A stretch of 64,000 nucleotides of DNA, taken from contig CAXUBM010000001.1 in the NCBI GenBank assembly GCA_964249235.1, forward strand, positions 11 to 64,010. Direction: 5' to 3'. Position numbers and translations under genes: made by a program. Positions 833-27,952 of the stretch are shown piece by piece. The first letter of the stretch is position 1; every line of letters begins with the position of its first letter. Source of the stretch: an uncultured Acetobacteraceae bacterium (GTDB taxonomy: Bacteria; Pseudomonadota; Alphaproteobacteria; Acetobacterales; Acetobacteraceae). The notes beneath the pieces are model-generated. The model did not search any database, was not told the origin of the DNA, and saw nothing but the letters and a program-made list of their open reading frames with translations.

Positions 833-1726
833 ATGGCCAATACCACGACGCACCGTATCGTAGATGATATCGCAGTTACCGTTCGCGCCCCCGCCGACAC
901 CTCGGAGAGTCCGATTATCATCCTGTGCCACGGGTTCTGTGGCATACAGGAGGTAATCCTACCCGATTTTGCGGACCGATTCGTCGCTGCAGGCTACACC
1001 GTGATCACCTTTGACTATCGCGGTTTTGGCTCAAGCTTCGGCGAACGTGGACGGTTGGCACCAGCAATGCAGATCCAGGACATCGTCTCCGTGATCGGGT
1101 GGGCGAAGGCGGAGTATGGTTGCGAGCAGGGGCGGATCGGCCTTTGGGGAACTTCGCTTGGCGGCTGCCATGTCATCGCGGCTGCCGCAAACAATCCAGA
1201 TATCGGTTGCGTCATCGCCCAGCTGCCGTTCGCCGACGGTGAGGAGCTCGTCCTCGGCACGTTGTCACTCGCGGAGAGGGCAGACTTCACCGCGACGTTG
1301 AAGAAGATGGAAGAAAAGCGTTCCTCTACTGGTAAGGAGCTGTTCGTCGGCATCACGCGCGTGCTCTCGGACGACGAGTCAAAGGCGTTCTTTGAGGCGA
1401 CTAAGGAGCAATTCCCGGCGATAGACGTGAAGATCCCTTTCCTTACCGTCCTGGAGACCATAAATTACAAACCCAAGTCATTCGCGGCCGCGGTGTCGTG
1501 TCCGGTCTTGGTGGTGGTGGCCGGGAAGGACACTGTAAACTCACCCGAGCAGGGCGTTGCACTCTACGAAGCAATCGGAGCGAGTCGGAAGTCTCTGCAT
1601 ATCGAGCAAGGAGCGCGCCACTACGACATCTACTCCGGCGTTCATTTCGAGATGATAGTCGCTCGTGAGACCGAATGGTTCCACGAGCATATCGGGGCTG
1701 GGATCGTCTCTCCACGTTCTGAGTAA
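833..1726 (+). CDS. alpha/beta hydrolase
   Basis: 297 aa. HGFCG motif, nucleophile elbow GTSLGG and a C-terminal His region (GARHYD). Confidence 0.8.
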   Translation: MANTTTHRIVDDIAVTVRAPADTSESPIIILCHGFCGIQEVILPDFADRFVAAGYTVITFDYRGFGSSFGERGRLAPAMQIQDIVSVIGWAKAEYGCEQGRIGLWGTSLGGCHVIAAAANNPDIGCVIAQLPFADGEELVLGTLSLAERADFTATLKKMEEKRSSTGKELFVGITRVLSDDESKAFFEATKEQFPAIDVKIPFLTVLETINYKPKSFAAAVSCPVLVVVAGKDTVNSPEQGVALYEAIGASRKSLHIEQGARHYDIYSGVHFEMIVARETEWFHEHIGAGIVSPRSE

Positions 1727-2322: not shown

Positions 2323-3660
2323 TCACCCGATCGACGATCGAAACCGTGCGATCTCCTCCGGCCGGTTGATGAGCGCGACACATGCCGCTTCGAGCTCATC
2401 GAGTGTCTTGGCCTTCACCATCGCGCGGCGAATCAGTAGCGGCGCAATCGGCCCAAGGATCTGCGCGAGCGCCCTGGTATAAGCGATCTCGTCATCGGCG
2501 GTGATGCTGCGCGGCAATGATGCCGAGGATGGCGAGCCTTTCGACCTCAGCGCGCGAAGCGCACCGTCGGCGGCGACAATCCCGAGGAGGCCCTTGCGCA
2601 GATCCTCCCGTTCCTCTCCCGCCGGAACGAATTCGGCAATCAGCTGGCAGAGCTCTTCGGGAGAGCTCGCCTTGCTCATCGTCCGACGAAGATGGTGCCT
2701 AGCCACCGGTCCGACGTAAAAGGCGAGTCGCCGCTCGATGGTCGCGATCGATTTCGGCTCAAGCGCGCCGAGCTCGCTCGCCCCTTCGGTCATGCGGCGT
2801 GCCGAAGGCATCACGATCGTGGCGTCCACCTCGGCGCCGGAGAATGCGAGACGCAGCGCGTCCGCCATGGCGCGGGCATTGCCGAAGCGGTCGTCGGCGC
2901 GCTTGGCAAGTGCCATCTCGACGACCCCCACGAGTGCCGCCGGCAGATCGGGCCTTAGTTCGCGCAACTTTGTCGGCGTGTCGTGGAGCACCCTGTGCGT
3001 AGTGGCGACATAGTTTTCGGCAGCGAACGCACGCTGGCCGGACAGAGCCTCGTAGAGGACGCAGCCGAGCGAGAACAGGTCGGAGCGGGCGTCGATGGCG
3101 CCGCCAAGGCACTGCTCTGGAGACATGTAGCAAGGCGTGCCGACCAGCACCGAGCTCATGGTCGCGTCCGAGGCGAGCGCGCGGGAGATGCCGAAATCGG
3201 TGACCTTGGTTTCGGATTCCGCACTCAGCAGGATGTTGGCCGGTTTGATGTCACGGTGAACGATGCCGAAATCATGCGCATAGGCGAGGGCGCCGAGGAC
3301 CTGCAGCATCGTGCGTTCGACCGTCGGCAGGTCGAGAGACGTGCCGCGGCTGATGTGGCGGCCGAGATGCACACCGTCGACATATTCGAGCACCAGGAAC
3401 GGGCTACCCTCGTGGACGGAGAAGTCGTAGATGCCGACGATGTTCGGATGGATGCAGCGACCGACCATCTTGGCTTCGTTGCGGAACCGGGCGATATAGT
3501 GGGCGCGGTCGTCGCCGTCGAGTAGATCGGTGCGGACGAGCTTGATCGCTACAGTGCGATCGATGTCTGGATCGTGAGCCTTGAAGACCACGCCCATCGC
3601 ACCGCGGCCGAGAAGTCCTTCGACACGAAATTTGCCGATATGATCGGGGCTACCCGCCAT
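2323..3660 (-). CDS. Hanks-type Ser/Thr protein kinase, soluble, T6SS-associated
   Basis: 445 aa. Motifs GRGAMGVV, AIK, HRDIKPANILL, DFG and SPE. No hydrophobic TM stretch. The C-terminus holds two ~55-aa repeats. Last gene of the tssA-tssG operon. Confidence 0.9.
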   Translation of the reverse strand: MAGSPDHIGKFRVEGLLGRGAMGVVFKAHDPDIDRTVAIKLVRTDLLDGDDRAHYIARFRNEAKMVGRCIHPNIVGIYDFSVHEGSPFLVLEYVDGVHLGRHISRGTSLDLPTVERTMLQVLGALAYAHDFGIVHRDIKPANILLSAESETKVTDFGISRALASDATMSSVLVGTPCYMSPEQCLGGAIDARSDLFSLGCVLYEALSGQRAFAAENYVATTHRVLHDTPTKLRELRPDLPAALVGVVEMALAKRADDRFGNARAMADALRLAFSGAEVDATIVMPSARRMTEGASELGALEPKSIATIERRLAFYVGPVARHHLRRTMSKASSPEELCQLIAEFVPAGEEREDLRKGLLGIVAADGALRALRSKGSPSSASLPRSITADDEIAYTRALAQILGPIAPLLIRRAMVKAKTLDELEAACVALINRPEEIARFRSSIG

Positions 3661-3669
3661 CGCGCGTCG

Positions 3670-4539
3670 CTACTCCTCCAGCAGACGGAAGGCGGCGACG
3701 AGACTGCGTCGCATCCGATTGAAGGACAGCGCCAGGGAGCCGATCTCGTCGTTCGAGCGACCACTGAATTCGGGAACGTCAAGGTTGCCGAGACTGACCT
3801 CGTCAGCGGTCCTGGAGATGGAGCGAACGGGCGCGATGATAAAGACGTGAAGCATCAAGTTCAGTAACACCAGCATAACCGCAAACACCACTGCGAGCGC
3901 GACCATAGTTCTGTAGAGGCTGCTCCGCGCGCGCGCAAACGCCACGTGTTCGGGCACTGAGACGATCTCGGCGCCGACGATCGCGCCCGGCTTCCAGCCG
4001 AAGCCGTTGGCGCTCCCGTAGGCGTCGATCATCGAGAGCGGCGCTGCCAGCGGAGTGGAGTGGCAGGCCAGGCATTGGGTGCCGACCCTGACCGGCTCGG
4101 ACAGTGACAGGACGCCGCCCGCCTCGGTGCGTCGCTCGGTCACCAGAGAGGGCAGGCTCGGCCTTGCCTTGAAGGATTCGATGATCGCGGTCTCCCAAGG
4201 CTCCGGCCGATCCGATGGATTGGTTGGGTTCTCGGCCGGCTGGCGGAACGTGTAGTCAGGACGCTCCTTCGACACCGCATTGAACGTCTGCTGTGCCGCG
4301 AAGAATGGGACCGCTTGCGGGATGAACTGCACCTTCATCGGCCGCGCGAGCAGCGGCGAGATCTGGACATCGGTGTAGTGGATCGTGGCGTTCACTTCGT
4401 CCATCATGATCCCCGCCTCAGACAGGACTGCGCGCTTAGCCGTGATCTGGCTCAGCGAGTCGACGAAGATCGTTGCCAAAACCAGACCGATGCCTAACGC
4501 CGCGATCATCACCAGGTTGAACTTGATCTTGAGTGTCAT
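3670..4539 (-). CDS. two-TM sensor-like protein: periplasmic DUF3365/Tll0287-like haem-c domain plus cytoplasmic HAMP, no output domain
   Basis: Start re-set to MTLKIKF (ATG at 4539). TM1 is LVMIAALGIGLVLATIFV. CxxCH site is CLACH. TM2 is MVALAVVFAVMLVLLNLMLHVFII. HAMP-like stretch is APVRSI...NDEIGSLALSFNRM. Confidence 0.8.
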   Translation of the reverse strand: MTLKIKFNLVMIAALGIGLVLATIFVDSLSQITAKRAVLSEAGIMMDEVNATIHYTDVQISPLLARPMKVQFIPQAVPFFAAQQTFNAVSKERPDYTFRQPAENPTNPSDRPEPWETAIIESFKARPSLPSLVTERRTEAGGVLSLSEPVRVGTQCLACHSTPLAAPLSMIDAYGSANGFGWKPGAIVGAEIVSVPEHVAFARARSSLYRTMVALAVVFAVMLVLLNLMLHVFIIAPVRSISRTADEVSLGNLDVPEFSGRSNDEIGSLALSFNRMRRSLVAAFRLLEE

Positions 4540-4549
4540 AAAAACGCCC

Positions 4550-5701
4550 TCAAGGATTGAGCAATCGCACGATCTCGATCTGACCGAGCACGCCGCTGGG
4601 CGGTTCTCCGAGCGACGCTTGGAAATGGCGGATCGCCGCGGTGGTCGCCGCGTCCATCTCACCGTTGGCCGGGCCGGCATAAAGGCCGCGCCGCGCCAGC
4701 GCGGCCTGAATGCGTGCGAGCCTCGGGTTGGGGGGGGCGGCCACTGACGGCCGGCTTTCGCCGTGCTGACGGGCGTGGACCGGCCACGTGGAACTTGCCT
4801 TCTTCCGCGCTTGCGTTGGGCTGGTCGGCCGTGCGGCTTGCGTCGTGGTCGGATTTTGCGCCGATGCGTGGCCGTCGGTCGAATTGTTGGCGCCCGACGC
4901 TGCTGGCTCGGCCGGCATCAACGGCGGCATGGGCGGCGGTGCGGCCGGAACAATCCGGTTTCGGATCGACGCGACCGGCTCCGTCACGTGTTCGGACGGG
5001 ACCGCCGACGGTTCTGGCGCGGGGAGGAACACGGTCGAAGCCCGGTTGCTCAGGCCCGGTCGCGAGGACAAGGCGGCGACGGTTGACGACCAGTCGGCGA
5101 TCGGGACGGACGGATCAGCCAATCCACGTCCAAGTGCGGCCGGTTTCCCGTCGGATGCGCTGATCGACAGCGCGAGATGCAGACCGGCGGGCAGGCGCTG
5201 ATCGGATCGCTGAATGCGTGCGCCGGGGACAGGGGAGAAATCGGCGTAGAGCGCGCCGGTCGAGCCGCCGATCGCGTTCAGCATAGCCTGGAGCACGACC
5301 CCCTGTGTTTCTGGGTCGACCGGACGGTCGACATCGATGTCGGTCGGCAGGACGAAGATGCGGCCGCCGACCGCGATCGCGTCCGAACAGACATAGACCA
5401 GCGTTGCGCCGTTCCTGTCGGACAGATTGGCCGCAAACGTGTCGAGCCCGGCGCGGAGTTCGATTCCGGTCGGGTCGAGCAGCGTCGTCACCAACCAGCC
5501 CTGCCCGCGAAGCCGCTCGCCGACCCTGCCGGCAGCCTCGACACAGGAGCTGTCGTGCGGGCGGCCCTGATAAGCGCTGTCCCCGATGACCATTGCGCTG
5601 CCTGCCTGCGCCGCTGCCGCGGCGCGCAGCGCGGTCGGCACGGCAAGGAGCCCGAGCATGACGGACAGCGCCACCGTGCGACCGGATCTCACGACAGGCA
5701 C
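4550..5701 (-). CDS. periplasmic caspase-like (degenerate) protein with C-terminal peptidoglycan-binding domain
   Basis: 383 aa. Signal peptide, then a caspase-family opening MVIGDSAYQG. Long P/A/S/T-rich linker. C-terminal PG_binding_1-like stretch RIQAALARRGLYAGPANGEMDAATTAAIRHFQ. Confidence 0.7.
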   Translation of the reverse strand: MPVVRSGRTVALSVMLGLLAVPTALRAAAAAQAGSAMVIGDSAYQGRPHDSSCVEAAGRVGERLRGQGWLVTTLLDPTGIELRAGLDTFAANLSDRNGATLVYVCSDAIAVGGRIFVLPTDIDVDRPVDPETQGVVLQAMLNAIGGSTGALYADFSPVPGARIQRSDQRLPAGLHLALSISASDGKPAALGRGLADPSVPIADWSSTVAALSSRPGLSNRASTVFLPAPEPSAVPSEHVTEPVASIRNRIVPAAPPPMPPLMPAEPAASGANNSTDGHASAQNPTTTQAARPTSPTQARKKASSTWPVHARQHGESRPSVAAPPNPRLARIQAALARRGLYAGPANGEMDAATTAAIRHFQASLGEPPSGVLGQIEIVRLLNP

Positions 5702-6750
5702 CCGCTCGGGCAGATGTCGCGCGCGTCAAATAAGGCGTCTGCCGCATCCTCTTGCCTCGCGCTGGTCGGCAGCCACATGTTCCAGCCGAGGCTCGGCGCC
5801 GCGGCGCTCCGGAGGGCCGGCTTCGGCACCTCCTCGGCGGCAAGAATAGGGTTGACCGCGAAGCCGATCTGCTCGTCGAGAAAGGCGCGAACAAAAGCGA
5901 CGATGCGGTCGAGCAAGTGCCGTCCGGGCAGCATCGCCTCGAACGCGGCGCGGGGCCGCGGGCCGACACTACGCACGACGCGGGAGTGGATGGCCCCGGG
6001 GCGCGCGCCGGCGGCGGTGTCGACGCCGAGCCGGTTGAACTGCCCGGGCTCGATGCCGCTGGGCAGCGCGCTCATCTGATCAGGATCGAGTTCGAGCCAC
6101 GCACCGCAGAACTGCTCGACCTGCACCTCGCGTCCGAGCCAGTCCGAAAGGATCGCTTGGAGCCGGTCGGCCGAACGCGGCTCGGTCGCGAACGCGCCGG
6201 CATAGAACAGCAGCGGATCGGGACCGATCGCAACGCGTGCGGCGGACTCGCGCGAGCCGTAGCCGGCAAGTGCGAGTATCGCGTCCCGCATGCCAAAGCG
6301 GCGGCCGCCGGGCCCGGCGAGCGCGTCAGCATTAGCGGCTTGGTGCGGCCGGTACTTGATTGCTGCATCGGCGAACTGCGCGATGGGGCGCTGTGCCAGC
6401 AGGTCGAGAAAATCGCCCAGCCCGCCGGCCCGGCCGCGCCGCTCGCCGATTGCGTGCTCGCTATAAACGCGTGGCAGGGTGCCGGCCGGACCGACCAGGC
6501 CAAGCAGGCCAACGGTGGCGTGGAAGCCGTCGCTGTCGGGTGCGACGGACAGCACGTCCGAGGCGACGAAGGCCAGCCCGGTCGGGGCGACGAAGCGGAT
6601 CGCGTCGCCCGGATCCCCCTTGCCGGCCAGGCGCATCATCACTGCGATTGCCGCATCGAAGGAGAAGCGCGACGGCTCGGCAAGGAGCGTCTCGCGCAAG
6701 GAGCAAGGCGGCGACCGTTGCGCAGCGAAGGTCTCGGGACGCGCGCTCAC
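5689..6750 (-). CDS. tssG: type VI secretion baseplate protein TssG (ImpH)
   Basis: Start re-set to the GTG that overlaps the tssF TGA (GTGA). TssG-like stretch LLAEPSRFSFDAAIAVMMRL...LGLVGPAGTLPRVYSE. Confidence 0.85.
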   Translation of the reverse strand: MSARPETFAAQRSPPCSLRETLLAEPSRFSFDAAIAVMMRLAGKGDPGDAIRFVAPTGLAFVASDVLSVAPDSDGFHATVGLLGLVGPAGTLPRVYSEHAIGERRGRAGGLGDFLDLLAQRPIAQFADAAIKYRPHQAANADALAGPGGRRFGMRDAILALAGYGSRESAARVAIGPDPLLFYAGAFATEPRSADRLQAILSDWLGREVQVEQFCGAWLELDPDQMSALPSGIEPGQFNRLGVDTAAGARPGAIHSRVVRSVGPRPRAAFEAMLPGRHLLDRIVAFVRAFLDEQIGFAVNPILAAEEVPKPALRSAAAPSLGWNMWLPTSARQEDAADALFDARDICPSGCLS

Positions 6751-18679: not shown

Positions 18680-19228
18680 ATGGACAGTGATCCCGGTCGC
18701 CGGACGGCAGACTTTGCAGCCAAGGCCGCATCTCCGACCGCGATGACCAGCTACCAGGGTCTCTCTACAAAGGTGATCGACTCGCTTTCCTGGTCGAAAC
18801 ACAACGACAAGCTGTCGAGCTACATGTGCTGGGACGCGATGCTGGCGTGCGCCTGGTATGCGAACGGCATTGCCAGCCAAGCCGTGGAGACCGCGCTCCA
18901 GGCCGACAAGAGCGATTTCGGGATCGTCAATAGCCAAAGTGCGGGCAGGGTCTTTGACAACCAATCGGTCGATATAACGAGCTTGCAGCAGTTGGTCGGC
19001 GAGATTGCGCCGGGTTCCTTCATTGGGTTCTTCAGAGGTGACACTCTGATTCATGCGATGATCTATATCGAGAGAGCCCGCGGGGCGGGGACGAAGAACG
19101 GCTGTATCTTTTCAGACTGCAAGCCGAACTGGTGCGAACTCGATCTGACGCGGATCTTCAGGACCGACGGGAAGAACCATCCGGACGTGACGATGAAAGC
19201 CAGATCGGTGGTCGGACAAAAGATCTGA
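18680..19228 (+). CDS. hypothetical Cys/His hydrolase-like protein (NlpC/P60- or papain-like signature); candidate effector
   Basis: 182 aa. Candidate nucleophile in SYMCWDAM (C50). PGSFIGFFRGDTLIHAMIYI resembles the NlpC/P60 'pGDlvff...HvgiYiG' His motif (H125). An alternative start lies at 18743. Confidence 0.5.
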   Translation: MDSDPGRRTADFAAKAASPTAMTSYQGLSTKVIDSLSWSKHNDKLSSYMCWDAMLACAWYANGIASQAVETALQADKSDFGIVNSQSAGRVFDNQSVDITSLQQLVGEIAPGSFIGFFRGDTLIHAMIYIERARGAGTKNGCIFSDCKPNWCELDLTRIFRTDGKNHPDVTMKARSVVGQKI

Positions 19229-19254: not shown

Positions 19255-19350
19255 CCGCCCAGGGGCGAGCCCTTGGCATCTCTCACTTCAAGAATGGATC
19301 CTGAGAGCGACTGCCCTGAGCGGTGTCCAGAGGCAGAGCCCCTGGCCTCG
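19255..19350. repeat. REP-like GC-rich hairpin element (two imperfect hairpins)
   Basis: CCAGGGGC-GA-GCCCTTGG at 19259-19276 and CCAGAGG-CAGAG-CCCCTGG at 19327-19345. The segment GCGGTGTCCAGAGGCAGAGCCCCTGGCCT resembles the element at 62958-62983. Confidence 0.45.
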
Positions 19351-20059
19351 CATTCAGCGTCGCCACGAGAGCGGTGACGTTGTCGCGCGCCTTGTGCCGG
19401 ATCGCCGCCTCGACCAGCTGGCGTGCAGGGTCGTCGCCGCCCATCAGCGCGACCACGTCGCCGTGCGGCAGCGAGCGCGTCAAGCCGTCGCTGCATAACA
19501 GGAACCGGTCGCCCGGCTCGACGGTGCCGATCACCTTGTCGACCAGGGCGCCCGCCCCGCCCACACCGATCGCGCGGGTGATCACGTTGGCATGGGCGTG
19601 ACGCTCCGCCTGCGCCTCGGTCAGCGTTCCCGAGCGGACCATCTCGCCGACCAGGCTGTGATCGGACGTCAGTTGATGCAAGCCGCCATGACGCAGTACG
19701 TAGGCCCGTGAGTCGCCGGCCCACAGGCAGGCCACGAAGCCATGGTGAAGCAACAGGACGACGACGGTTGTCGCCGCCGAATCCGTTCCACGCGCCGCGG
19801 CGTCGGCGAGCAGGCTCGCCTGCGCCTCCTCGAGACGGGTCCTGACCGCAGCCAGGCGCTCCGGCAGAGCCAGTTCGTGCGGAATAGTGTCGAGCAAGCG
19901 CACGACCTCGGCAGAGGCGACACCGCCGCCCGCTTTGCCACCGACGCCATCAGCGACCGCGAACAGACCGATGTCGGGCCGGCACAGAAAGGCGTCCTGA
20001 TTGATGGGCCGCACGCATCCCGCATGGGAGGCGGCCCAGTGGCGGACGGGCTCGCTCAC
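19283..20059 (-). CDS. pppA: PP2C-family Ser/Thr phosphatase PppA
   Basis: Start re-set to the GTG that overlaps the tagF TGA (GTGA). 258 aa. Contains RPINQDAF, FAVADGVGG and DNVTALV. Confidence 0.85.
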   Translation of the reverse strand: MSEPVRHWAASHAGCVRPINQDAFLCRPDIGLFAVADGVGGKAGGGVASAEVVRLLDTIPHELALPERLAAVRTRLEEAQASLLADAAARGTDSAATTVVVLLLHHGFVACLWAGDSRAYVLRHGGLHQLTSDHSLVGEMVRSGTLTEAQAERHAHANVITRAIGVGGAGALVDKVIGTVEPGDRFLLCSDGLTRSLPHGDVVALMGGDDPARQLVEAAIRHKARDNVTALVATLNARPGALPLDTAQGSRSQDPFLK

Positions 20060-20550
20060 TGCCGCTTCAGTGCCGCCGCGTCCGGCAGCGCCTCGCCGGT
20101 GAACGCGACGCCGCCGTTCCGCCACCACCGAACCCGTGCACCCACGCGGGCAGAACCGGCGGCCGCTGGCGGTGGCAAGGCCTGCAGGCGTTCCGCCAAC
20201 TCGGCGGGGGCCAGACCGGTCCGGATCGCGTCCAGTCCGACCCGTTCGGCCGCGTCGAGGAACGTCTCCACCGCTTCTGCCGCCTCCGCCGCGACCAGCA
20301 ACGGAAACGGCCGGCCGACCCGGTCCGCGCTGGGCAGCCAGACGCCGGCCAGCACCCCGCGTCCGCACACGCCGGCGGCGAGCGCGAAGTGCCAGACGCC
20401 GACATCCGGCAGGCAGACCAGCGATAGGACGGGCTGCACCCACTCGTCCCAGCTGGTCACAAGCCGGCGCGACAGGCCGGCACGGACGAAGTCGCCGCGC
20501 GACGGGAGCTTGCCGTAAAAGCCGACGCGAACCGGTGCCTGCCCAGTCAT
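20056..20550 (-). CDS. tagF: T6SS-associated protein TagF (DUF2094 family)
   Basis: 164 aa. VGFYGKLPSRGDFV is the hallmark TagF N-terminus. ATGA overlap with the tssM stop. Confidence 0.85.
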   Translation of the reverse strand: MTGQAPVRVGFYGKLPSRGDFVRAGLSRRLVTSWDEWVQPVLSLVCLPDVGVWHFALAAGVCGRGVLAGVWLPSADRVGRPFPLLVAAEAAEAVETFLDAAERVGLDAIRTGLAPAELAERLQALPPPAAAGSARVGARVRWWRNGGVAFTGEALPDAAALKRQ

Positions 20551-23500: not shown

Positions 23501-24017
23501 CTTCGTCGGCGAACCACCAGTCGCACAGGCGCGTGCCGCCCAACCCGCTCACGGAGGGAGCCTCGTCATCACGCGCGAGCGGGAAATGCAGGCCGGAGTT
23601 GAGCAAAGCGGTGGTCTTGCCGGCACCCGGCGGCCCGATCAGTACGAACCAGGGTTGCTCGTAGAGATGGCGTCGTCCGCCGCGGCGAAGACGCGCTAGC
23701 GACTGCTTCATCCGTTCGCGCAGGCGGGCGACCTCCTCGGTCGCGTCGGCCTGGGTCTCCTTACCGTCGCGGGCGCCGCCGGTCATCGCCTCGGCCAGCA
23801 TGCCCTCGCGTCGCCGTCGGCGGCGGGCAAGGATCGCGTTGGCGGCGATACAGACCAGCAGGAGCAGCGCAATGGCAGCGATCCTGGGCAGCGGCGGTCT
23901 GAGTGCCGGGACCAGCGGGAACAGATACCAGATCAGCATGCTTGCGATCGCCCATCCGCCGAGACTCTGCGTCCAGCGGCTGGTGAGCGTCATCATGACG
24001 AAGGGTAGCCGGTCCAT
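20547..24017 (-). CDS. tssM: T6SS membrane complex protein TssM (ImpL/IcmF)
   Basis: 1156 aa. N-terminal TM segments, Walker A GPPGAGKT and IcmF-like length. ATGA overlap with the tssL stop. Confidence 0.95.
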   Translation of the reverse strand: MDRLPFVMMTLTSRWTQSLGGWAIASMLIWYLFPLVPALRPPLPRIAAIALLLLVCIAANAILARRRRRREGMLAEAMTGGARDGKETQADATEEVARLRERMKQSLARLRRGGRRHLYEQPWFVLIGPPGAGKTTALLNSGLHFPLARDDEAPSVSGLGGTRLCDWWFADEAVLIDTAGRYTTQDSDAAVDRAGWQGFLDLLRRTRPRQPLNGVIVVLSLVELAAAEPAERALHARSVRLRIDEITERLRSRVPVYVVLSKADQLRGFDAFFDDLDEEGRAQVWGMTLPLQEGVESFGREFGLLLVRLDGRLVERLQAERAADRRALIGSFPLQVASLQRPIDEFLHACFAGGRLDPAPFLRGIYLTSATQAGTPIDRLTGALARSFGLDQKHVPALRPVTGRSFFIKRLLRDVVLGEALLVSHRPGLARRRRLRRAAGFSAVGVATLAVSLLLWRDDAANRVAIEHADEALAAYGQVVAGTRLDPVDDDDLSRVAPVLNAAADLPQASPRRAAPLGLSQHDKIAQSDRLVYSHALQRILLPRLIHRLEQQMRGRFGDADFLYQATRVYLTLGGAGPMDPDLIRAWMTDDWNARYPGALNAPLRTRLRAHLDRLLAEPLPPVSLDGALVQAARATFSRVSLAQRVYDRVQTGSDAQSLGDWTPASALGDAGVRLFTRLSGKTLNDGVPGFYTATGYDVLLHDLPATTQAIAGESWVLGRDERIPTEGPAVTALERSVVGLWSADAEAHWDALFTDLALAPFGGGRETAMQELYVLSSPQSPARDLLTGIVRALRLNPGSAAKPATGSAHATDTLAALFVAPANAQTAATDPAAGYEAHYRPLLDLVGTGGAAPLDNVLRLIDGLEAELAAASPGSITLPATLQGSGDPVALLDAEARRQPPPVSSWLRQIAAVGNAALGTAARQTASAAFAGAAAGGGAEAPQALCGSVVDGKFPFARSSGQDAPIDDFTRLFAPGGVLDSFFQSQVKPFVDMSDAVWRLHRLGGVDAPVGASAVASFQQAAAVRDAFFPAGEPQVRFSLTPRPAPGPKAKLTLGAASIATDSTEPVSFSWPGGDGPSTASVVFDGDAGAVLRASGPWALFHLLADGRLRPAGERRFDLTFESDGRQADFILEPGSSHNPFGHDLLSGFRCPVIR

Positions 24018-25339
24018 CAGCGCGTCCCCTGCTGGCCGACGACGATCTCGATCCGTCGGTTCTGCTGCCGCCCGTCGGGCGTCGCGTTTGAGGCAATCGG
24101 CTCGGCGTCGGCGAGCCCCTCGGCGGTGATCCGGGACGGATCGACGGTTTGCGAGAGCACGGCGGCGGCGGCCTTCGCCCGGCCCAACGAGAGCTCGTAG
24201 TTGGACGGAAACGCCACCGTGTGGATCGGCTGATTATCGGTGTAGCCGACCACCCGGACCGGGCCCGGGTTGGAGCGGAGTGCTGCGGCCACGCGCGACA
24301 GCGTCGGCAGCAGGAGCGTCTCGATCGTCGCACTTCCCGACTGGAACATGCCCGCGCTCTCGATCCGCACGATAGGAACCGACCGGGTCCCGACGATGCT
24401 CACGAGGCCGGCCCTGACTTCGGGCTGTAGAAAGCCGGCCAGCGTGTCGCCCCTACCTTGCGGCTGCGGCGTCATTGGTAGGGGTTTCGGCGGATCGATG
24501 CGGACGATGACCGGCATTGCGCGCGGCGGCGCCGACAGGCCGGCTTCGAACGTGCGGTCGGACTGCGCATTCAGTCCGAGCGAAATCAGCGCATAGGCGA
24601 ACCCGAGCAGACCGGTGGCGAGCAACGCGGCGAGCCAGACCGGCAGCTCGGCCCGCGGTGCGCGATACGGCGCCGAGACGCCCTGCCAGTGCGGGGATAG
24701 CGCAGGCTCAGCGGCGCCGCGCTGTCGCAAGATGACCAGGTAGGTTTCCTCGCGCAGCCGGTCGAGATCGGCCGGTCCACGCGGCGAAAGCCGGTAGCGG
24801 CCCTGCATGCCCAGTGACATGCAGAAGTACATCAGCTCGATCACCGGCAGGAACGCACCGGCGTTGCCGCACAGACGCGTCAGCAGGTCGAAGAAGCGAG
24901 CGCCGCTTCGCACCTCGCCGTGGAAAGTCGACACCAGCGACGCGTCCGCCCAAGGACCGCGGCTGCCCCAGGGCGTGTTCTGGACCACGTCGTCGAGACT
25001 CGCGCACAGGACGTAGTGGCTGGTTCTTATCTGTTCGAGCGGCAGCCTGGCATCGCGCAGCGCCTGCTCGTAGCGCCGAACCTCCACCACGACGTTCTCG
25101 CGCAACTTCGCGGGATCGGGGATGCTCATCACGTTGCGCAGGCTGCACATGAGCGACAGCAGCGGGGCGGCCCCGGCCACGATCGGCGATCCGCTCGCGG
25201 TCGGCAGGTCGACGAATCCGGAGCGGTCCTCGGTCGACGGCTCCTGGCTTTGAAGCGCCGCGATGGTTGCAGCCGCCGGCCGTGGCATGATCACCGTGCG
25301 ATCGTCATCGTCGGGTTCGGCGAAAGGATTGTCGCTCAT
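24017..25339 (-). CDS. tssL: T6SS membrane complex protein TssL (ImpK/DotU) with C-terminal OmpA/MotB peptidoglycan-binding domain
   Basis: Start re-set to MSDNPFAEPDDDDRTV (ATG at 25339). DotU-like core, one TM (LPVWLAALLATGLLGFAYALISL). OmpA-like stretch VVGYTDNQP...NRRIEIVV. Confidence 0.9.
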   Translation of the reverse strand: MSDNPFAEPDDDDRTVIMPRPAAATIAALQSQEPSTEDRSGFVDLPTASGSPIVAGAAPLLSLMCSLRNVMSIPDPAKLRENVVVEVRRYEQALRDARLPLEQIRTSHYVLCASLDDVVQNTPWGSRGPWADASLVSTFHGEVRSGARFFDLLTRLCGNAGAFLPVIELMYFCMSLGMQGRYRLSPRGPADLDRLREETYLVILRQRGAAEPALSPHWQGVSAPYRAPRAELPVWLAALLATGLLGFAYALISLGLNAQSDRTFEAGLSAPPRAMPVIVRIDPPKPLPMTPQPQGRGDTLAGFLQPEVRAGLVSIVGTRSVPIVRIESAGMFQSGSATIETLLLPTLSRVAAALRSNPGPVRVVGYTDNQPIHTVAFPSNYELSLGRAKAAAAVLSQTVDPSRITAEGLADAEPIASNATPDGRQQNRRIEIVVGQQGTR

Positions 25340-25349
25340 GCGCGGCGCC

Positions 25350-26675
25350 TCATGCCCGGATCGCCCAAAGCTCGAGCTCCAGGTTTGGGAGGTCGCCGGA
25401 GACGTGGATGGCGAAGCCCCCGGAGTTCTGCATCTGCGGCCAGTGCGCGGAATTGCGGTCCAGCTCGAAATACTGCGCACCCGGTATGAATGGCATCTGT
25501 CTCGGCGCGACCGGCAGCGGCCGCAGCTCGATGCCAGGCAGCGCCACGTTCACCAACTCCCTGATATGTTCGACCGCGCCGATCTTGGCAGTGCCCGGGA
25601 AGACGCGCCGCAGGGTCTCCGATGGTATGTCGGCCTTCGCCACCAGCACGACGCTGGTGCCGGACAGGAGGGTCCGGTCCAGGATCGGGCCCACGCGAAC
25701 GCCGTGCCGCCGTTCCTGCAAGGGGATCTGGATCGCGGTCTGTTCCAGTACCGCTGACAGCGACTTGCGTATCTCCTCCATCACCGGCGTAAAGCATCGC
25801 TGCAGGTCGTCGTGGCGATAGGATGGGAACCGGCCGGGCCGGCGCTTCGGATCGGTGAAGGTGGCGAGTTCGCCTGCCACTTGAAGCAGGATCCGGAACA
25901 GCGATTCCGGGTGGATCGCGCCCGCGTCGGCCAGGTGGGCGAGCAGCGTCTGCCAGCCATTGAGCGACTGCAGAAGCAGGAAGTCGGCGACCTCAGTATT
26001 GCTCTTGGTGCCCACCGCGGTCAGGCGCGCGGCGATCGCCTCGCCGCGCTGGTTGAGCATGCCGGAAAGCTCGACGATCAGGCCGGCAAGCCGCGGCGTC
26101 GCGACGCAGGCGAGAACCGGTGGGATCCAGCGATCGTCGAGGATGACCCGGTGATCGGAACCCATCTCGACGATGCGGGCGACGGGCAGACAGAGATAGC
26201 CTTCGCGATCGTCGGTCTCGAGCAGGAAGCGGAGCCGAAGCTGGCCGATCTGGAGCTGCGCCGGCTCGCTCGCCCCCGAATGGGTGTCGAACGCCTCGAA
26301 ACCTTGCGGCTCGTAGCGGCCGTCGCGGCCGGCGCTGCTGATCTCGGCCGAGCCCGGCTGCTGGAGGCGCACGGCGAGATGGACCAGCACGTCGCGCGCC
26401 GTCTCCGGCACCTGCAGCGGCGGCGGCAGCGGCGCTTCGTCGGGAGCCGAAAACGGCGTTCCGTCGTCGAACACGCCGCCCGTCGAACTCAGCGCAAAGC
26501 GGCCGGTGGCGAGGAGGTCGCGCGCGACGGCAATGTCGGTGAAGCCCCACGGGAATGGCCGCAGCGCCCGCGTGCTGGCGCGCAACTGTGCTGTCGTCCA
26601 GCGATCCTGCTGCTGGAAATGCTGCGCCCTGAGGAACATGCCTTCCTGCCAGGCAACGCGATTGTGCCAAGTCAA
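25350..26675 (-). CDS. tssK: T6SS baseplate protein TssK (ImpJ)
   Basis: 441 aa. N-terminus VAWQEGMFLRAQHFQQQDRW is typical of TssK. TTG start forms a TTGA overlap with the fha stop. Confidence 0.9.
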   Translation of the reverse strand: MTWHNRVAWQEGMFLRAQHFQQQDRWTTAQLRASTRALRPFPWGFTDIAVARDLLATGRFALSSTGGVFDDGTPFSAPDEAPLPPPLQVPETARDVLVHLAVRLQQPGSAEISSAGRDGRYEPQGFEAFDTHSGASEPAQLQIGQLRLRFLLETDDREGYLCLPVARIVEMGSDHRVILDDRWIPPVLACVATPRLAGLIVELSGMLNQRGEAIAARLTAVGTKSNTEVADFLLLQSLNGWQTLLAHLADAGAIHPESLFRILLQVAGELATFTDPKRRPGRFPSYRHDDLQRCFTPVMEEIRKSLSAVLEQTAIQIPLQERRHGVRVGPILDRTLLSGTSVVLVAKADIPSETLRRVFPGTAKIGAVEHIRELVNVALPGIELRPLPVAPRQMPFIPGAQYFELDRNSAHWPQMQNSGGFAIHVSGDLPNLELELWAIRA

Positions 26676-27952
26676 GAACGATCCTCCCGATCGTGCTTCG
26701 CGGCGTCTTGCGCGGCGATCTCGGCCATGGCGGCCTCATAGGCGCGCACGAAGGACTTGCCGAATACGCTGTCGAAATCGTCCGTCAGCGCCCGCATGAT
26801 ACGGGCGTGACGGGACTTGTAGGCCGCCCAGGAGGCGCGGTCGCGCCGACCGGAGAGACGGTCGATGAGAGTGCGAGTGCTCGCGTCGGACAGACGCGCA
26901 GGGTCGAGCTCGCCGAGCACGTCGCGCACCGCGTGCTGCATGGCCGACGCGACCGCGAGCTCGTGCAGCCGCATGTCGCGCAACGCTTCGGCGATCGCCT
27001 GCTCGGGGGTCATGCGGCCCTTGCGTCCGATCCCGACTAGGGCGGCGAGCGCGCTGTCGTCGTCGGCAGAGAATTTGAGCGGATTGTTGCCGATCGCGCG
27101 GATCACCGTCTGCTCGATCCGGAACTCACCCTTGATCGCGGCGCGCGCGATCATCATCCGGCGCAGGCCGCCGACCATGGCGCGGAACGCGGCGCCTAGC
27201 TCGCGCAGGATTGTATCGGGATCACCGGACGCAACGTTGCTGATTCCGGCACCCACCGCGAACGAAGCGAGCGAGGCAGCGCTGTTCGGCGGCGCGGCCA
27301 CGGCTTCGGGAGGGATCAACAGCGCGATCGATTCCGATAGAGGCGGCGGGTCGCGACGCAGGACCATGGATCGGTCCCAATCGTCCGGGATCGTCTCGAG
27401 ACTCGGCCGCGGTGGGCGGAAATGTTCCCGCAGGTCAGAGGCGTGGTCGGGGACCGCATCACCGTAAGGGCTGCTGTCATCGACGAGCGGGTCGAAATCG
27501 GCCGGCAGTCCGACTGGCGGGATAGCGGCCTGAACCGGGCCGGCATCCAGGAACGGAAAGGGATCGCCGGTCAAACGGCTGTCCGCCGGGGCGGACGGAT
27601 GGCCGAAGCCGGAAGGCGCAGCTGTCTCACCGGACGCGGGATCTACGTCCAGATCTGCCTCGAACTCATAGGCGCCGATGGCGAGACGGTCGCCGGCGCG
27701 GAGCACTCGCGGGACGCCGGGCTCGAGACAAGCGCCGTTGAGGAAGGTGCCGTTGCTGCTGATGTCGGTGACCAGCCACTGGCCATCCACGGCGGCGATC
27801 TCGCAGTGACGCTTGGACAGCAGACGGGCCGGATCGGGCAGTGTCCAGTCGCTTCCGTCGCCACGCCCGATGCTGAATCGCGCATGCGACACTTCGCGTG
27901 TCTCGGCAACGACGCCGGTCGGGCAGCTTTGCATGCGCAGCAGGAGGGTCAC
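26672..27952 (-). CDS. tagH: T6SS FHA-domain protein (Fha/TagH, ImpI)
   Basis: Start re-set to the GTG at 27952 (GTGA overlap with the upstream gene). FHA core FSIGRGDGSDWTLPDP...SKRHCEI...DISSNGTFLNG. TagH-like C-terminal half. Confidence 0.85.
   Translation of the reverse strand: MTLLLRMQSCPTGVVAETREVSHARFSIGRGDGSDWTLPDPARLLSKRHCEIAAVDGQWLVTDISSNGTFLNGACLEPGVPRVLRAGDRLAIGAYEFEADLDVDPASGETAAPSGFGHPSAPADSRLTGDPFPFLDAGPVQAAIPPVGLPADFDPLVDDSSPYGDAVPDHASDLREHFRPPRPSLETIPDDWDRSMVLRRDPPPLSESIALLIPPEAVAAPPNSAASLASFAVGAGISNVASGDPDTILRELGAAFRAMVGGLRRMMIARAAIKGEFRIEQTVIRAIGNNPLKFSADDDSALAALVGIGRKGRMTPEQAIAEALRDMRLHELAVASAMQHAVRDVLGELDPARLSDASTRTLIDRLSGRRDRASWAAYKSRHARIMRALTDDFDSVFGKSFVRAYEAAMAEIAAQDAAKHDREDRS

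Follow-up and report, generated by a model that had tools for sequence, protein, structure and literature searches.

A predicted haem receptor and its docking kinase coupled to the tssG end of a type VI secretion cluster in an uncultured Acetobacteraceae bacterium

We analyzed a 64,000-nucleotide stretch of DNA (hereafter the window) from an uncultured Acetobacteraceae bacterium (assembly GCA_964249235.1, contig CAXUBM010000001.1, positions 11 to 64,010 of the forward strand), which carries a type VI secretion system (T6SS) cluster. In the region 2323-5701, three minus-strand genes, here called genes i, ii, and iii, lie immediately 3′ of tssG and are tightly coupled to it. As judged from their sequences, genes ii and iii are a predicted Cache_haem-HAMP (CHH) receptor and its docking kinase. 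This receptor-kinase pair belongs to a recently described system, but its recruitment to a T6SS and its pseudo-paracaspase partner, encoded by gene i, were not found described, and a literature search that reached a minority of subscription journals gave no description of a T6SS combined with a CHH receptor and kinase. Most likely, the module is a receptor-tethered substitute for PpkA that feeds the threonine-phosphorylation pathway (TPP) of the T6SS, because it is coupled to tssG and its kinase is the sole Hanks kinase of a cluster in which Fha/TagH, TagF, and PP2C are encoded as well. The probability of the whole reading, in which the CHH receptor-kinase replaces the membrane-spanning PpkA as TPP input and gene i is an accessory, was estimated at about 0.62.

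Results

Layout of the trio and its junction with tssG

Gene i (4550-5701, minus strand, GTG start) is an open reading frame (ORF) of 383 aa, which encodes a predicted secreted pseudo-paracaspase followed by a P/A/S/T-rich linker and a PG_binding_1 domain. The core genes of the tssA-tssG operon end with tssG (5689-6750, minus strand; Pfam T6SS_TssG, E 2e-63), whose TGA stop codon is at 5691-5689, inside gene i, and the two genes overlap by 13 nt. With the alternative GTG start of gene i at 5692, which was the choice of a public gene caller, the product has 380 aa and the overlap shrinks to 4 nt (GTGA). Gene ii (3670-4539, minus strand) encodes the CHH receptor, which has two transmembrane (TM) helices and no output domain. 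Its listed ORF reaches 4680, but every homologue begins at MTLK/MSLR, and the product from the internal ATG has 289 aa. Gene iii (2323-3660, minus strand) encodes a soluble Hanks-type Ser/Thr kinase of 445 aa with two C-terminal helical bundles (DUF8082).

Genes i and ii are separated by 10 nt (4540-4549) and genes ii and iii by 9 nt (3661-3669), and the Shine-Dalgarno-like sequences GAGGG and GGAGGAG are located within the ends of the preceding genes. In a simple scan, the trio showed no promoter-like site, nor any terminator-like site on its coding strand. The trio is translationally coupled to tssG. The coordinates, the overlap with tssG, and the two gaps given in the original prediction all agreed with the ORFs and the junction sequence.

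The receptor and its kinase

The closest described system is the CHH receptor of Pseudomonas azotoformans, in which a HAMP that lacks an output domain binds an operon-linked soluble kinase with nanomolar affinity (Deshpande et al., May 2026 preprint, bioRxiv 10.64898/2026.05.25.727664). Cryo-EM of that complex showed that the HAMP is contacted by two pseudo-symmetric C-terminal helical bundles of the kinase, with the docking helices IGPLARFLVRKSLN and IGPIARIVVSRALR, and nitric oxide (NO) on the periplasmic haem c raised the phosphorylation of Thr256 of the HAMP (10.64898/2026.05.25.727664). A companion preprint defines the Cache_haem domain and reports tight NO binding by the HAMP-linked type, while the Tll0287-like stand-alone type has Cys/His ligation (10.64898/2026.02.01.703092). 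Neither preprint mentions the T6SS, type VI, FHA proteins, or an upstream periplasmic partner, and the authors state that the downstream consequences are unknown.

Kyte-Doolittle hydropathy (mean over 19 residues, threshold 1.6) showed two segments of the gene ii product above the threshold, in windows 2-33 and 206-242, which flank the sensor domain. This domain is a periplasmic Cache_haem (DUF3365/Tll0287-like, PF11845) domain at residues 33-196 (3952-4443, minus strand; Pfam E 4.7e-32). It contains the CLACH haem-c attachment motif (C156, C159, and H160; 4060-4074, minus strand), and the CxxCH pattern, invariant in the homologue alignment, was present in 77-78 of 82 species homologues of the receptor. 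C156 and C159 are the only cysteines of the window receptor, and the absence of a third Cys fits the sensor-type cluster, not the Cys/His redox type, as far as the sequence indicates. The cytoplasmic part is a HAMP domain at residues 234-281 (3697-3840, minus strand; Pfam E 1.5e-11), with a near-invariant VS[LM]G motif (S249 and G251) at the AS1/connector junction. The HAMP ends 8 residues before the C-terminus, and there is no enzymatic output domain. A sequence search with the receptor in a PDB copy that did not contain the P. azotoformans complex returned generic HAMP structures only (e.g., Af1503 HAMP). The receptor family is large: a protein search gave 3402 matches, the best 120 of which were all about 290 aa long with the identical two Pfam domains, and relatives were encoded by at least 584 genomes out of 185,579 (one set per species), with a range covering Alpha-, Beta-, and Gammaproteobacteria, Acidobacteriota, and Methylomirabilis.

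The kinase's catalytic domain covers residues 12-261 (2878-3627, minus strand; Pfam Pkinase, E 1.1e-50), and its GxGxxG, VAIK, HRD, DFG, and SPE motifs are all intact. No TM segment was detected in the kinase by hydropathy, the maximal 19-residue mean being 1.41 and below 1.6. An AlphaFold2 model built from 42 homologues had a mean predicted local distance difference test (pLDDT) score of 86, with a confident catalytic domain. In the model, the catalytic domain is followed by a disordered linker (residues 280-294), a first helical bundle at residues 296-373 (2542-2775, minus strand) with YVGPVARHHLRRTMS, a short linker, and a second bundle at residues 388-444 (2329-2499, minus strand) with ILGPIAPLLIRRAMV. 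Both bundles were modelled with a pLDDT of about 90-97, and the linkers flanking them had low confidence. The C-terminal duplication is real, as indicated by an internal alignment and by two GP[VI]A helices, one near residue 315 and one near residue 401. The kinase segments YVGPVARHHLRR and ILGPIAPLLIRR correspond to the published HAMP-docking helices; YVGPVARHHLRRTMS of bundle 1 pairs with the published IGPLARFLVRKSLN and ILGPIAPLLIRRAMV of bundle 2 with the published IGPIARIVVSRALR. DUF8082 was found in all close kinase homologues according to precomputed Pfam annotations. A PDB sequence search with the kinase C-terminus gave no significant match for DUF8082, and tblastn of the same region against plasmids gave two weak matches, a search too insensitive to judge whether DUF8082 occurs in plasmid-borne rhizobial ppkA.

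Thus, like the system of P. azotoformans, the window encodes a receptor that combines a CxxCH-bearing DUF3365/Cache_haem domain in the periplasm with a pair of TM helices and a terminal HAMP, next to a soluble PknB-like kinase with two bundles that carry [ILV]GP[ILV]A...R helices; a PP2C phosphatase is sometimes linked to the P. azotoformans-type systems too. Unlike them, the window version is likely alphaproteobacterial, is fused to a T6SS operon, and is preceded by a gene for a pseudo-paracaspase with a peptidoglycan-binding domain.

The wall-binding pseudo-paracaspase

The N-terminus of the gene i product (about residues 1-27; 5621-5701, minus strand) looks like a signal peptide by hydropathy and sequence, with a basic n-region, a single hydrophobic segment at 9-30, an ALRA/AAA motif, and no lipobox Cys. 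A putative caspase-like (paracaspase-like) domain lacking the catalytic His and Cys follows at about residues 34-215 (5057-5602, minus strand), and a PG_binding_1 domain is at residues 327-374 (4580-4723, minus strand; Pfam E 2.3e-9). In the window protein alone, Peptidase_C14 was matched with an E value of 0.009, under the Pfam cut-off. Its orthologues gave Pfam E values as good as 1.4e-25, and a profile made from 21 orthologues matched the MALT1 paracaspase domain with an E value of 1.6e-14. The same profile also matched the peptidoglycan-binding domains of SltB3 and SleB. A protein search with gene i gave two matches only, for which the low-complexity linker is the probable cause.

In the MALT1 alignment, the catalytic His (AGHG) corresponds to Tyr in the gene i family (CGY) and to Asp in the window (CSD), and the catalytic Cys (DMC) corresponds to DLA in the family and ADF in the window. 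Across the family, the position of the catalytic Cys is occupied by a small or hydrophobic residue (Ala/Val/Phe-type). Because both catalytic residues are replaced family-wide, the label "pseudo-caspase" appears justified from sequence for the entire family. Two other cysteines, C53 and C105, are conserved and are separate from the catalytic position. The gene i family resembles MALT1-type paracaspases and bacterial Peptidase_C14 + PG_binding_1 proteins in an N-terminal domain that matches the caspase/paracaspase fold by profile and in a C-terminal PG_binding_1, but MALT1-type paracaspases have a catalytic His and Cys, both of which the family has replaced while it keeps C53 and C105. TagR and RtkS, the periplasmic activators of T6SS kinases, are likewise secreted and encoded with a kinase system; this is a likeness of position, and they have no sequence relationship to gene i. 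Gene i is probably a peptidoglycan-tethered, catalytically dead periplasmic accessory of the receptor.

The original prediction, which was made from the sequence alone, had described the three products in much the same way. Hydropathy and Pfam agreed with its signal-peptide protein with PG_binding_1 (gene i) and its two-TM, DUF3365/Tll0287-like protein with CLACH and a terminal HAMP (gene ii), and the MALT1 alignment supported its pseudo-caspase call. Pfam, the internal alignment, and the AlphaFold2 model agreed with a Hanks kinase that has a duplicated C-terminal module, and the cytosolic placement of this kinase stands, since neither a TM segment nor a periplasmic domain was found by hydropathy. 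The presence of Fha, PP2C, and TagF in the cluster was verified by Pfam and tblastn.

Receptor loci in other genomes

To place the module, 82 species loci were searched with the window proteins, with flanks of up to 10 kb. At 43 of them, at least 8 kb was available on both sides (full-flank loci). Neighbour statistics were taken from tblastn and Pfam matches and not from gene counts, because a simple ORF caller picks some antisense ORFs in high-GC loci. The kinase was directly downstream of the receptor at 66 of the 82 loci and at 37 of the 43 full-flank loci, and the remaining loci were mostly cut by the contig end or had the kinase at a distance of a few kb.

At least two T6SS genes were found within 10 kb of the receptor at 15 of the 43 full-flank loci and at 18 of the 82 overall, and none of these 18 T6SS-linked loci had a second kinase. 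Named or annotated records gave six more T6SS-linked loci: one from Rhodovastum, one each on a 4.3 Mb contig and on a JGI contig, and three on plasmids of Paraburkholderia, Skermanella, and Caballeronia. The window's own clade was T6SS-linked throughout with the order tssG-(gene i)-receptor-kinase. It contains Aliidongia, Inquilinus, Rhizobium sp. BK313 and P32RR-XVIII, Acetobacteraceae metagenome-assembled genomes (MAGs), Rhodovastum atsumiense, and the 4.3 Mb contig from the same metagenome. The trio genes are thus conserved beside T6SS genes in relatives, as the original prediction required. The nearest relatives belong to the Acetobacteraceae, to Rhodospirillales-like genomes, and to a small number of Rhizobium strains, and not to the Rhizobiales in general, across which the original prediction had proposed a survey.

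Outside this clade, T6SS linkage was scattered across the receptor tree in many lineages and with differing gene orders. The order was fha-tssK-tssL-tssM-tagF/PP2C-receptor-kinase in Methylococcaceae (L021) and Limibaculum (L024), and tagF-receptor-kinase-clpV on the Skermanella plasmid. Receptor and kinase were divergent from tssB on pBN1 of Paraburkholderia aromaticivorans, and a FecR-receptor-kinase-PP2C unit was convergent with tagF-tssM-tssL-tssK-tagH on the Caballeronia plasmid. On the JGI contig (L091:1-10873), tssM-tagF-PP2C and one unannotated gene were followed by a DUF8082 kinase, which is near the slot of ppkA. On this contig, the gene i/receptor pair lies 1.6 kb beyond the kinase, so receptor and kinase are split here but both remain at the T6SS cluster. 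The 4.3 Mb contig (L090:12277-16518) has, in this order, tssG, the trio, a response regulator, a CCP_MauG di-haem peroxidase, a histidine kinase with a DAHL domain, and vgrG-fha-tssK. Two Rhizobium spp. loci (L002:7339-8829 and L005) have a gene for a 496-aa methyltransferase (Methyltransf + MethyTransf_Reg) between tssG and the trio.

Neighbour proteins from 24 loci without T6SS were also scanned with Pfam, and FHA was found in 6 of these proteins and Guanylate_cyc in 7. Five neighbour proteins that were scanned singly were FHA-adenylate/guanylate cyclase fusions, which lie upstream of the module. Examples are L051:7742-8935, L055:7970-8893, and L027:13770-15347, each scanned individually; some have GAF, and sometimes a PP2C gene is nearby. 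The loci L064, L076, L035, and L079 fall into the BLAST clusters of these FHA-cyclase genes. The FHA-cyclase neighbours suggest a second recurrent output, namely cyclic-nucleotide signalling read by an FHA domain, and a phosphothreonine reader beside the module suggests itself as the recurring theme. In Burkholderiales loci, one Pfam scan of the genes downstream of the kinase found unrelated metabolic genes only. Three Burkholderiales MAGs have a NapC/NirT-type tetrahaem cytochrome gene upstream of a FecR-receptor-kinase unit (L068:7048-9016, L075:7001-9005, and L082:6703-7368), followed by a VWA_CoxE gene in L068 and L075. These neighbours may be a link to nitrogen-oxide respiration.

The variable gene upstream of the receptor

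Orthologues of gene i were found immediately upstream of the receptor at 21 mainly alphaproteobacterial loci. About half of these are T6SS-linked, and the rest have no T6SS gene in the available sequence, several of them being short contigs. At 19 other loci, mostly of Betaproteobacteria and Acidobacteriota (within L022-L082; e.g., L051:9040-9978), and also at L086:11126-11998, the same position is occupied by a FecR-like secreted protein of about 300 aa. A third, unnamed family of secreted proteins is found there at 10 loci, several of them gammaproteobacterial (e.g., L037:9029-9946), and some lineages have no partner gene in this position. A variable periplasmic partner upstream of the receptor is thus a common feature, which supports, without proving, a three-polypeptide sensor.

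On plasmid pRGUI01 of Rhodovulum sp. P5 (L087:7942-11212), a trio of PG-binding protein, receptor, and kinase lies beside an IS6 transposase gene, with no T6SS gene within 9 kb. The upstream protein is placed here only by its annotation as a peptidoglycan-binding-domain protein. This locus suggests that the trio moves as a cassette.

The T6SS cluster of the window

The T6SS cluster spans about 2323-30623 and is Agrobacterium-like, with three blocks. The first (minus strand) contains vgrG, fha, tssK, tssL with an OmpA-like domain, tssM, tagF, and a PP2C gene; the second (plus strand) contains clpV, a gene for an HExxH protein, hcp, and one more gene; and the third (minus strand) contains tssA, tssB, tssC, a second tssC, tagJ/impE, tssE, tssF, tssG, and the trio. 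The layout resembles the Agrobacterium type, tssA-B-C-C'-tagJ-E-F-G and fha-K-L-M-tagF-pppA. As in the TPP (PpkA-Fha-PppA with TagF), a Hanks kinase, an FHA protein, a PP2C, and TagF are encoded in one cluster, and the trio kinase was the sole Hanks kinase detectable in the 64-kb window.

The presumed phosphothreonine reader, fha/tagH (FHA domain and T6SS_FHA_C by Pfam), is at 26672-27952 (minus strand, start approximate). Using the TagF-PP2C protein of L021 in tblastn, we located tagF at 20056-20550 (minus strand), encoding 164 aa that begin with MTGQAPVRVGFYGKLPSRGDF. The PP2C phosphatase gene (pppA-like) is at 19283-20047 (minus strand, start approximate; Pfam PP2C_2, E 2.1e-14). In the window, tagF and the PP2C gene are separate genes in different frames, whereas A. 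tumefaciens has a TagF-PppA fusion, and the Arg-rich N-terminus of the 456-aa ORF listed at tagF/PP2C is spurious. The tssL gene (DotU and OmpA-like domain by Pfam) is at 24017-25339 (minus strand). By translation, the probable N-terminus of TssL is MSDNPFAEPDDDDRTVIMP (25283-25339, minus strand), with T15 as candidate phospho-threonine. It has a DNP...TV[IV] stretch like that around pThr14 of A. tumefaciens TssL, whose published phosphopeptide is DNPSSWQDLPpTVVEI (PMC3953482), and Thr15 of TssL is a candidate kinase target from this sequence likeness.

Among the annotated ORFs of the cluster, no TagQRST-like genes were noticed, although no search aimed at these was made; a TssJ-like gene was not noticed either. 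The tssC (VipB) gene is present as two neighbouring paralogues on the minus strand, at 11399-12889 and, more divergent, at 9848-11386, and this duplication is kept in all close relatives examined (L001, L002, L089, and L090). On the plus strand 3′ of clpV, a 197-aa HELIH (HExxH) protein (17432-18025), hcp (18092-18610), and a 182-aa unknown protein (18680-19228) are encoded; the HELIH protein and the 182-aa protein may act as effector and as immunity protein or adaptor. A 228-aa minus-strand ORF at 18368-19054 was rejected as spurious, since this region codes for hcp and the two plus-strand genes. The cluster is bounded by an alpha/beta-hydrolase gene (833-1726, plus strand; Hydrolase_4 / Peptidase_S15), which is convergent to the kinase gene beyond a non-coding gap of about 600 nt and is the same neighbour as on ENA contig L085.

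Discussion

Canonical PpkA spans the membrane and has a periplasmic domain, whereas the kinase of the window has no TM segment and ends in DUF8082. Compared with the canonical TPP, sensing in the window would be delegated to a separate haem receptor, and the signal would be a haem ligand instead of membrane damage. In this mechanism, the receptor would be a dimeric inner-membrane protein with a periplasmic Cache domain, a covalent haem c at CLACH, and a cytoplasmic HAMP four-helix bundle, on which the soluble kinase would dock through its two C-terminal helical bundles. A periplasmic haem ligand (NO in the characterised homologue) would shift the HAMP conformation and alter the kinase output. 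The kinase would then phosphorylate Fha and/or the N-terminus of TssL, the FHA domain would read the phosphothreonine so that assembly proceeds, and PP2C and TagF would counteract the phosphothreonine signal. Gene i would act as a wall-anchored modulator of the receptor. Haem c, NO binding, HAMP-kinase docking, and NO-enhanced phosphorylation are extended to the window proteins by analogy with the homologue and would hold if the two systems work alike; the T6SS as output, Fha or TssL as substrate, and the downstream steps are what we infer from the canonical pathway and the gene content. The gene context also suggests that a gas or haem-ligand signal controls T6SS firing. The most complete version, in which a haem-c gas sensor (for NO or a related ligand) switches the T6SS on post-translationally via a HAMP-tethered kinase and the pseudo-paracaspase is a third subunit reporting the state of the wall, is tentative, and we would put the odds somewhat against it.

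Part of this picture had been proposed in the original prediction. Its HAMP transducer that signals to a soluble kinase through a duplicated module, with a gas or small ligand being sensed, proved right in kind when compared with the P. azotoformans homologues. Its division of sensing over three polypeptides is backed for the receptor and kinase by the biochemistry and cryo-EM of these homologues, but the part assigned to gene i follows only from co-occurrence at 21 loci. Its remark that the arrangement was undescribed no longer applies to the receptor-kinase pair, which has now been published (10.64898/2026.05.25.727664), but a description of the link to the T6SS was not found.

Several results weigh against the replacement of PpkA by this module. 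About two thirds of the full-flank loci (28 of 43) had no T6SS gene within 10 kb, and therefore the module is not T6SS-specific; it is a general signalling cassette, and control of a T6SS is no inherent part of it. In the preprint, NO raised phosphorylation of the receptor's own HAMP, the sole substrate reported, and activation towards an external substrate was not part of the results (10.64898/2026.05.25.727664). The window receptor is about 44-46% identical to gammaproteobacterial receptors, and its Ser249, which stands at a conserved HAMP position, is only a candidate counterpart of the published Thr256. DUF8082 was not called by the Pfam scan made here and comes from precomputed annotations only. 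As for gene i, its partnership is limited to a mainly alphaproteobacterial subset, other lineages having unrelated upstream genes, and its AlphaFold2 model had a mean pLDDT of 36 from a two-homologue alignment and was not used.

The ligand is the point at which another explanation survives best. The receptor could sense redox, oxygen, or another ligand in place of NO, or the wall-bound partner could deliver the stimulus (envelope damage) with the haem being structural. The authors of the CHH preprint themselves state that another haem ligand is possible (10.64898/2026.05.25.727664), some relatives have a di-haem peroxidase (L090) or NapC/NirT cytochromes as neighbours, and the inputs known for the TPP respond to damage of the envelope or to contact between cells (T6SS reviews, including PMC13584744). 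We consider this explanation rather unlikely, however, for the homologue binds NO tightly, auto-oxidises rather than stably binding O2, and responds far less to redox alone, and the window receptor, as in the NO-binding type, has no Cys axial ligand.

The trio could also be an autonomous signalling cassette that merely shares the tssG transcript and has an output other than the T6SS, such as receptor autophosphorylation that feeds an FHA-cyclase or a different target encoded elsewhere. The loci lacking T6SS genes, the FHA-cyclase neighbours at such loci, the Rhodovulum plasmid trio, and the receptor itself as the sole reported substrate all fit such a cassette. But the start of gene i overlaps the tssG stop with no promoter-like site inside the trio, the cluster has Fha, PP2C, and TagF yet no other kinase, and linkage to T6SS genes is found again in many lineages that are unrelated, with varied gene orders, the ppkA slot among them. 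Its frequency is far above the rate for a random gene, which is a rough estimate of about 1% within 10 kb and was not computed. An autonomous cassette is thus improbable in the window.

The least probable explanation is that gene i is a structural or wall-remodelling T6SS accessory like TagL, TagN, TagP, or TagX and that the signalling unit consists of genes ii and iii alone: gene i does have PG_binding_1 and directly follows tssG, no TssJ-like gene was noticed, and peptidoglycan-binding accessories are frequent in T6SS clusters (PMC13584744), but a variable upstream partner of the receptor is common, which argues against such a role, at least 11 of the 21 gene i loci have no T6SS gene in the available sequence (several are short contigs, but L006, L012, L020, and L039 have full flanks), a similar trio with a PG-binding protein is on the Rhodovulum plasmid, which likewise has no T6SS near it, gene i stays with the receptor and not with the T6SS core genes in L091, its lost catalytic residues mean that it cannot cleave peptidoglycan peptides as a caspase-like protease, and TssL already carries an OmpA-like wall-binding domain.

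A receptor-tethered substitute for PpkA would be of interest to the T6SS field, in which kinase-triggered assembly is known but the upstream signal has been found in few species only, namely envelope damage through TagQRST in P. aeruginosa and RtkS in Serratia. T6SS reviews of 2023 and 2026 (the latter PMC13584744) list as inputs the membrane PpkA with TagQRST, RtkS, or an unknown activator, and the 2023 review gives "an unknown protein" as the upstream signal of the TPP in A. tumefaciens. The recurrence of the CHH kinase as sole kinase in T6SS clusters that contain Fha, TagF, and PP2C leads to the testable hypothesis that a haem ligand, whether NO or a different one, gates the firing of the T6SS. 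If this is true, the module would be a new class of input for the T6SS TPP and the first physiological output for CHH receptor-kinase systems.

NO is released by denitrifying neighbours, plants, and animal hosts. Gating by NO would link attacks between bacteria to a cue with chemical meaning, and the FHA-cyclase neighbours at other loci suggest a shared logic, in which a receptor-tethered kinase produces a phosphothreonine that is read by an FHA protein.

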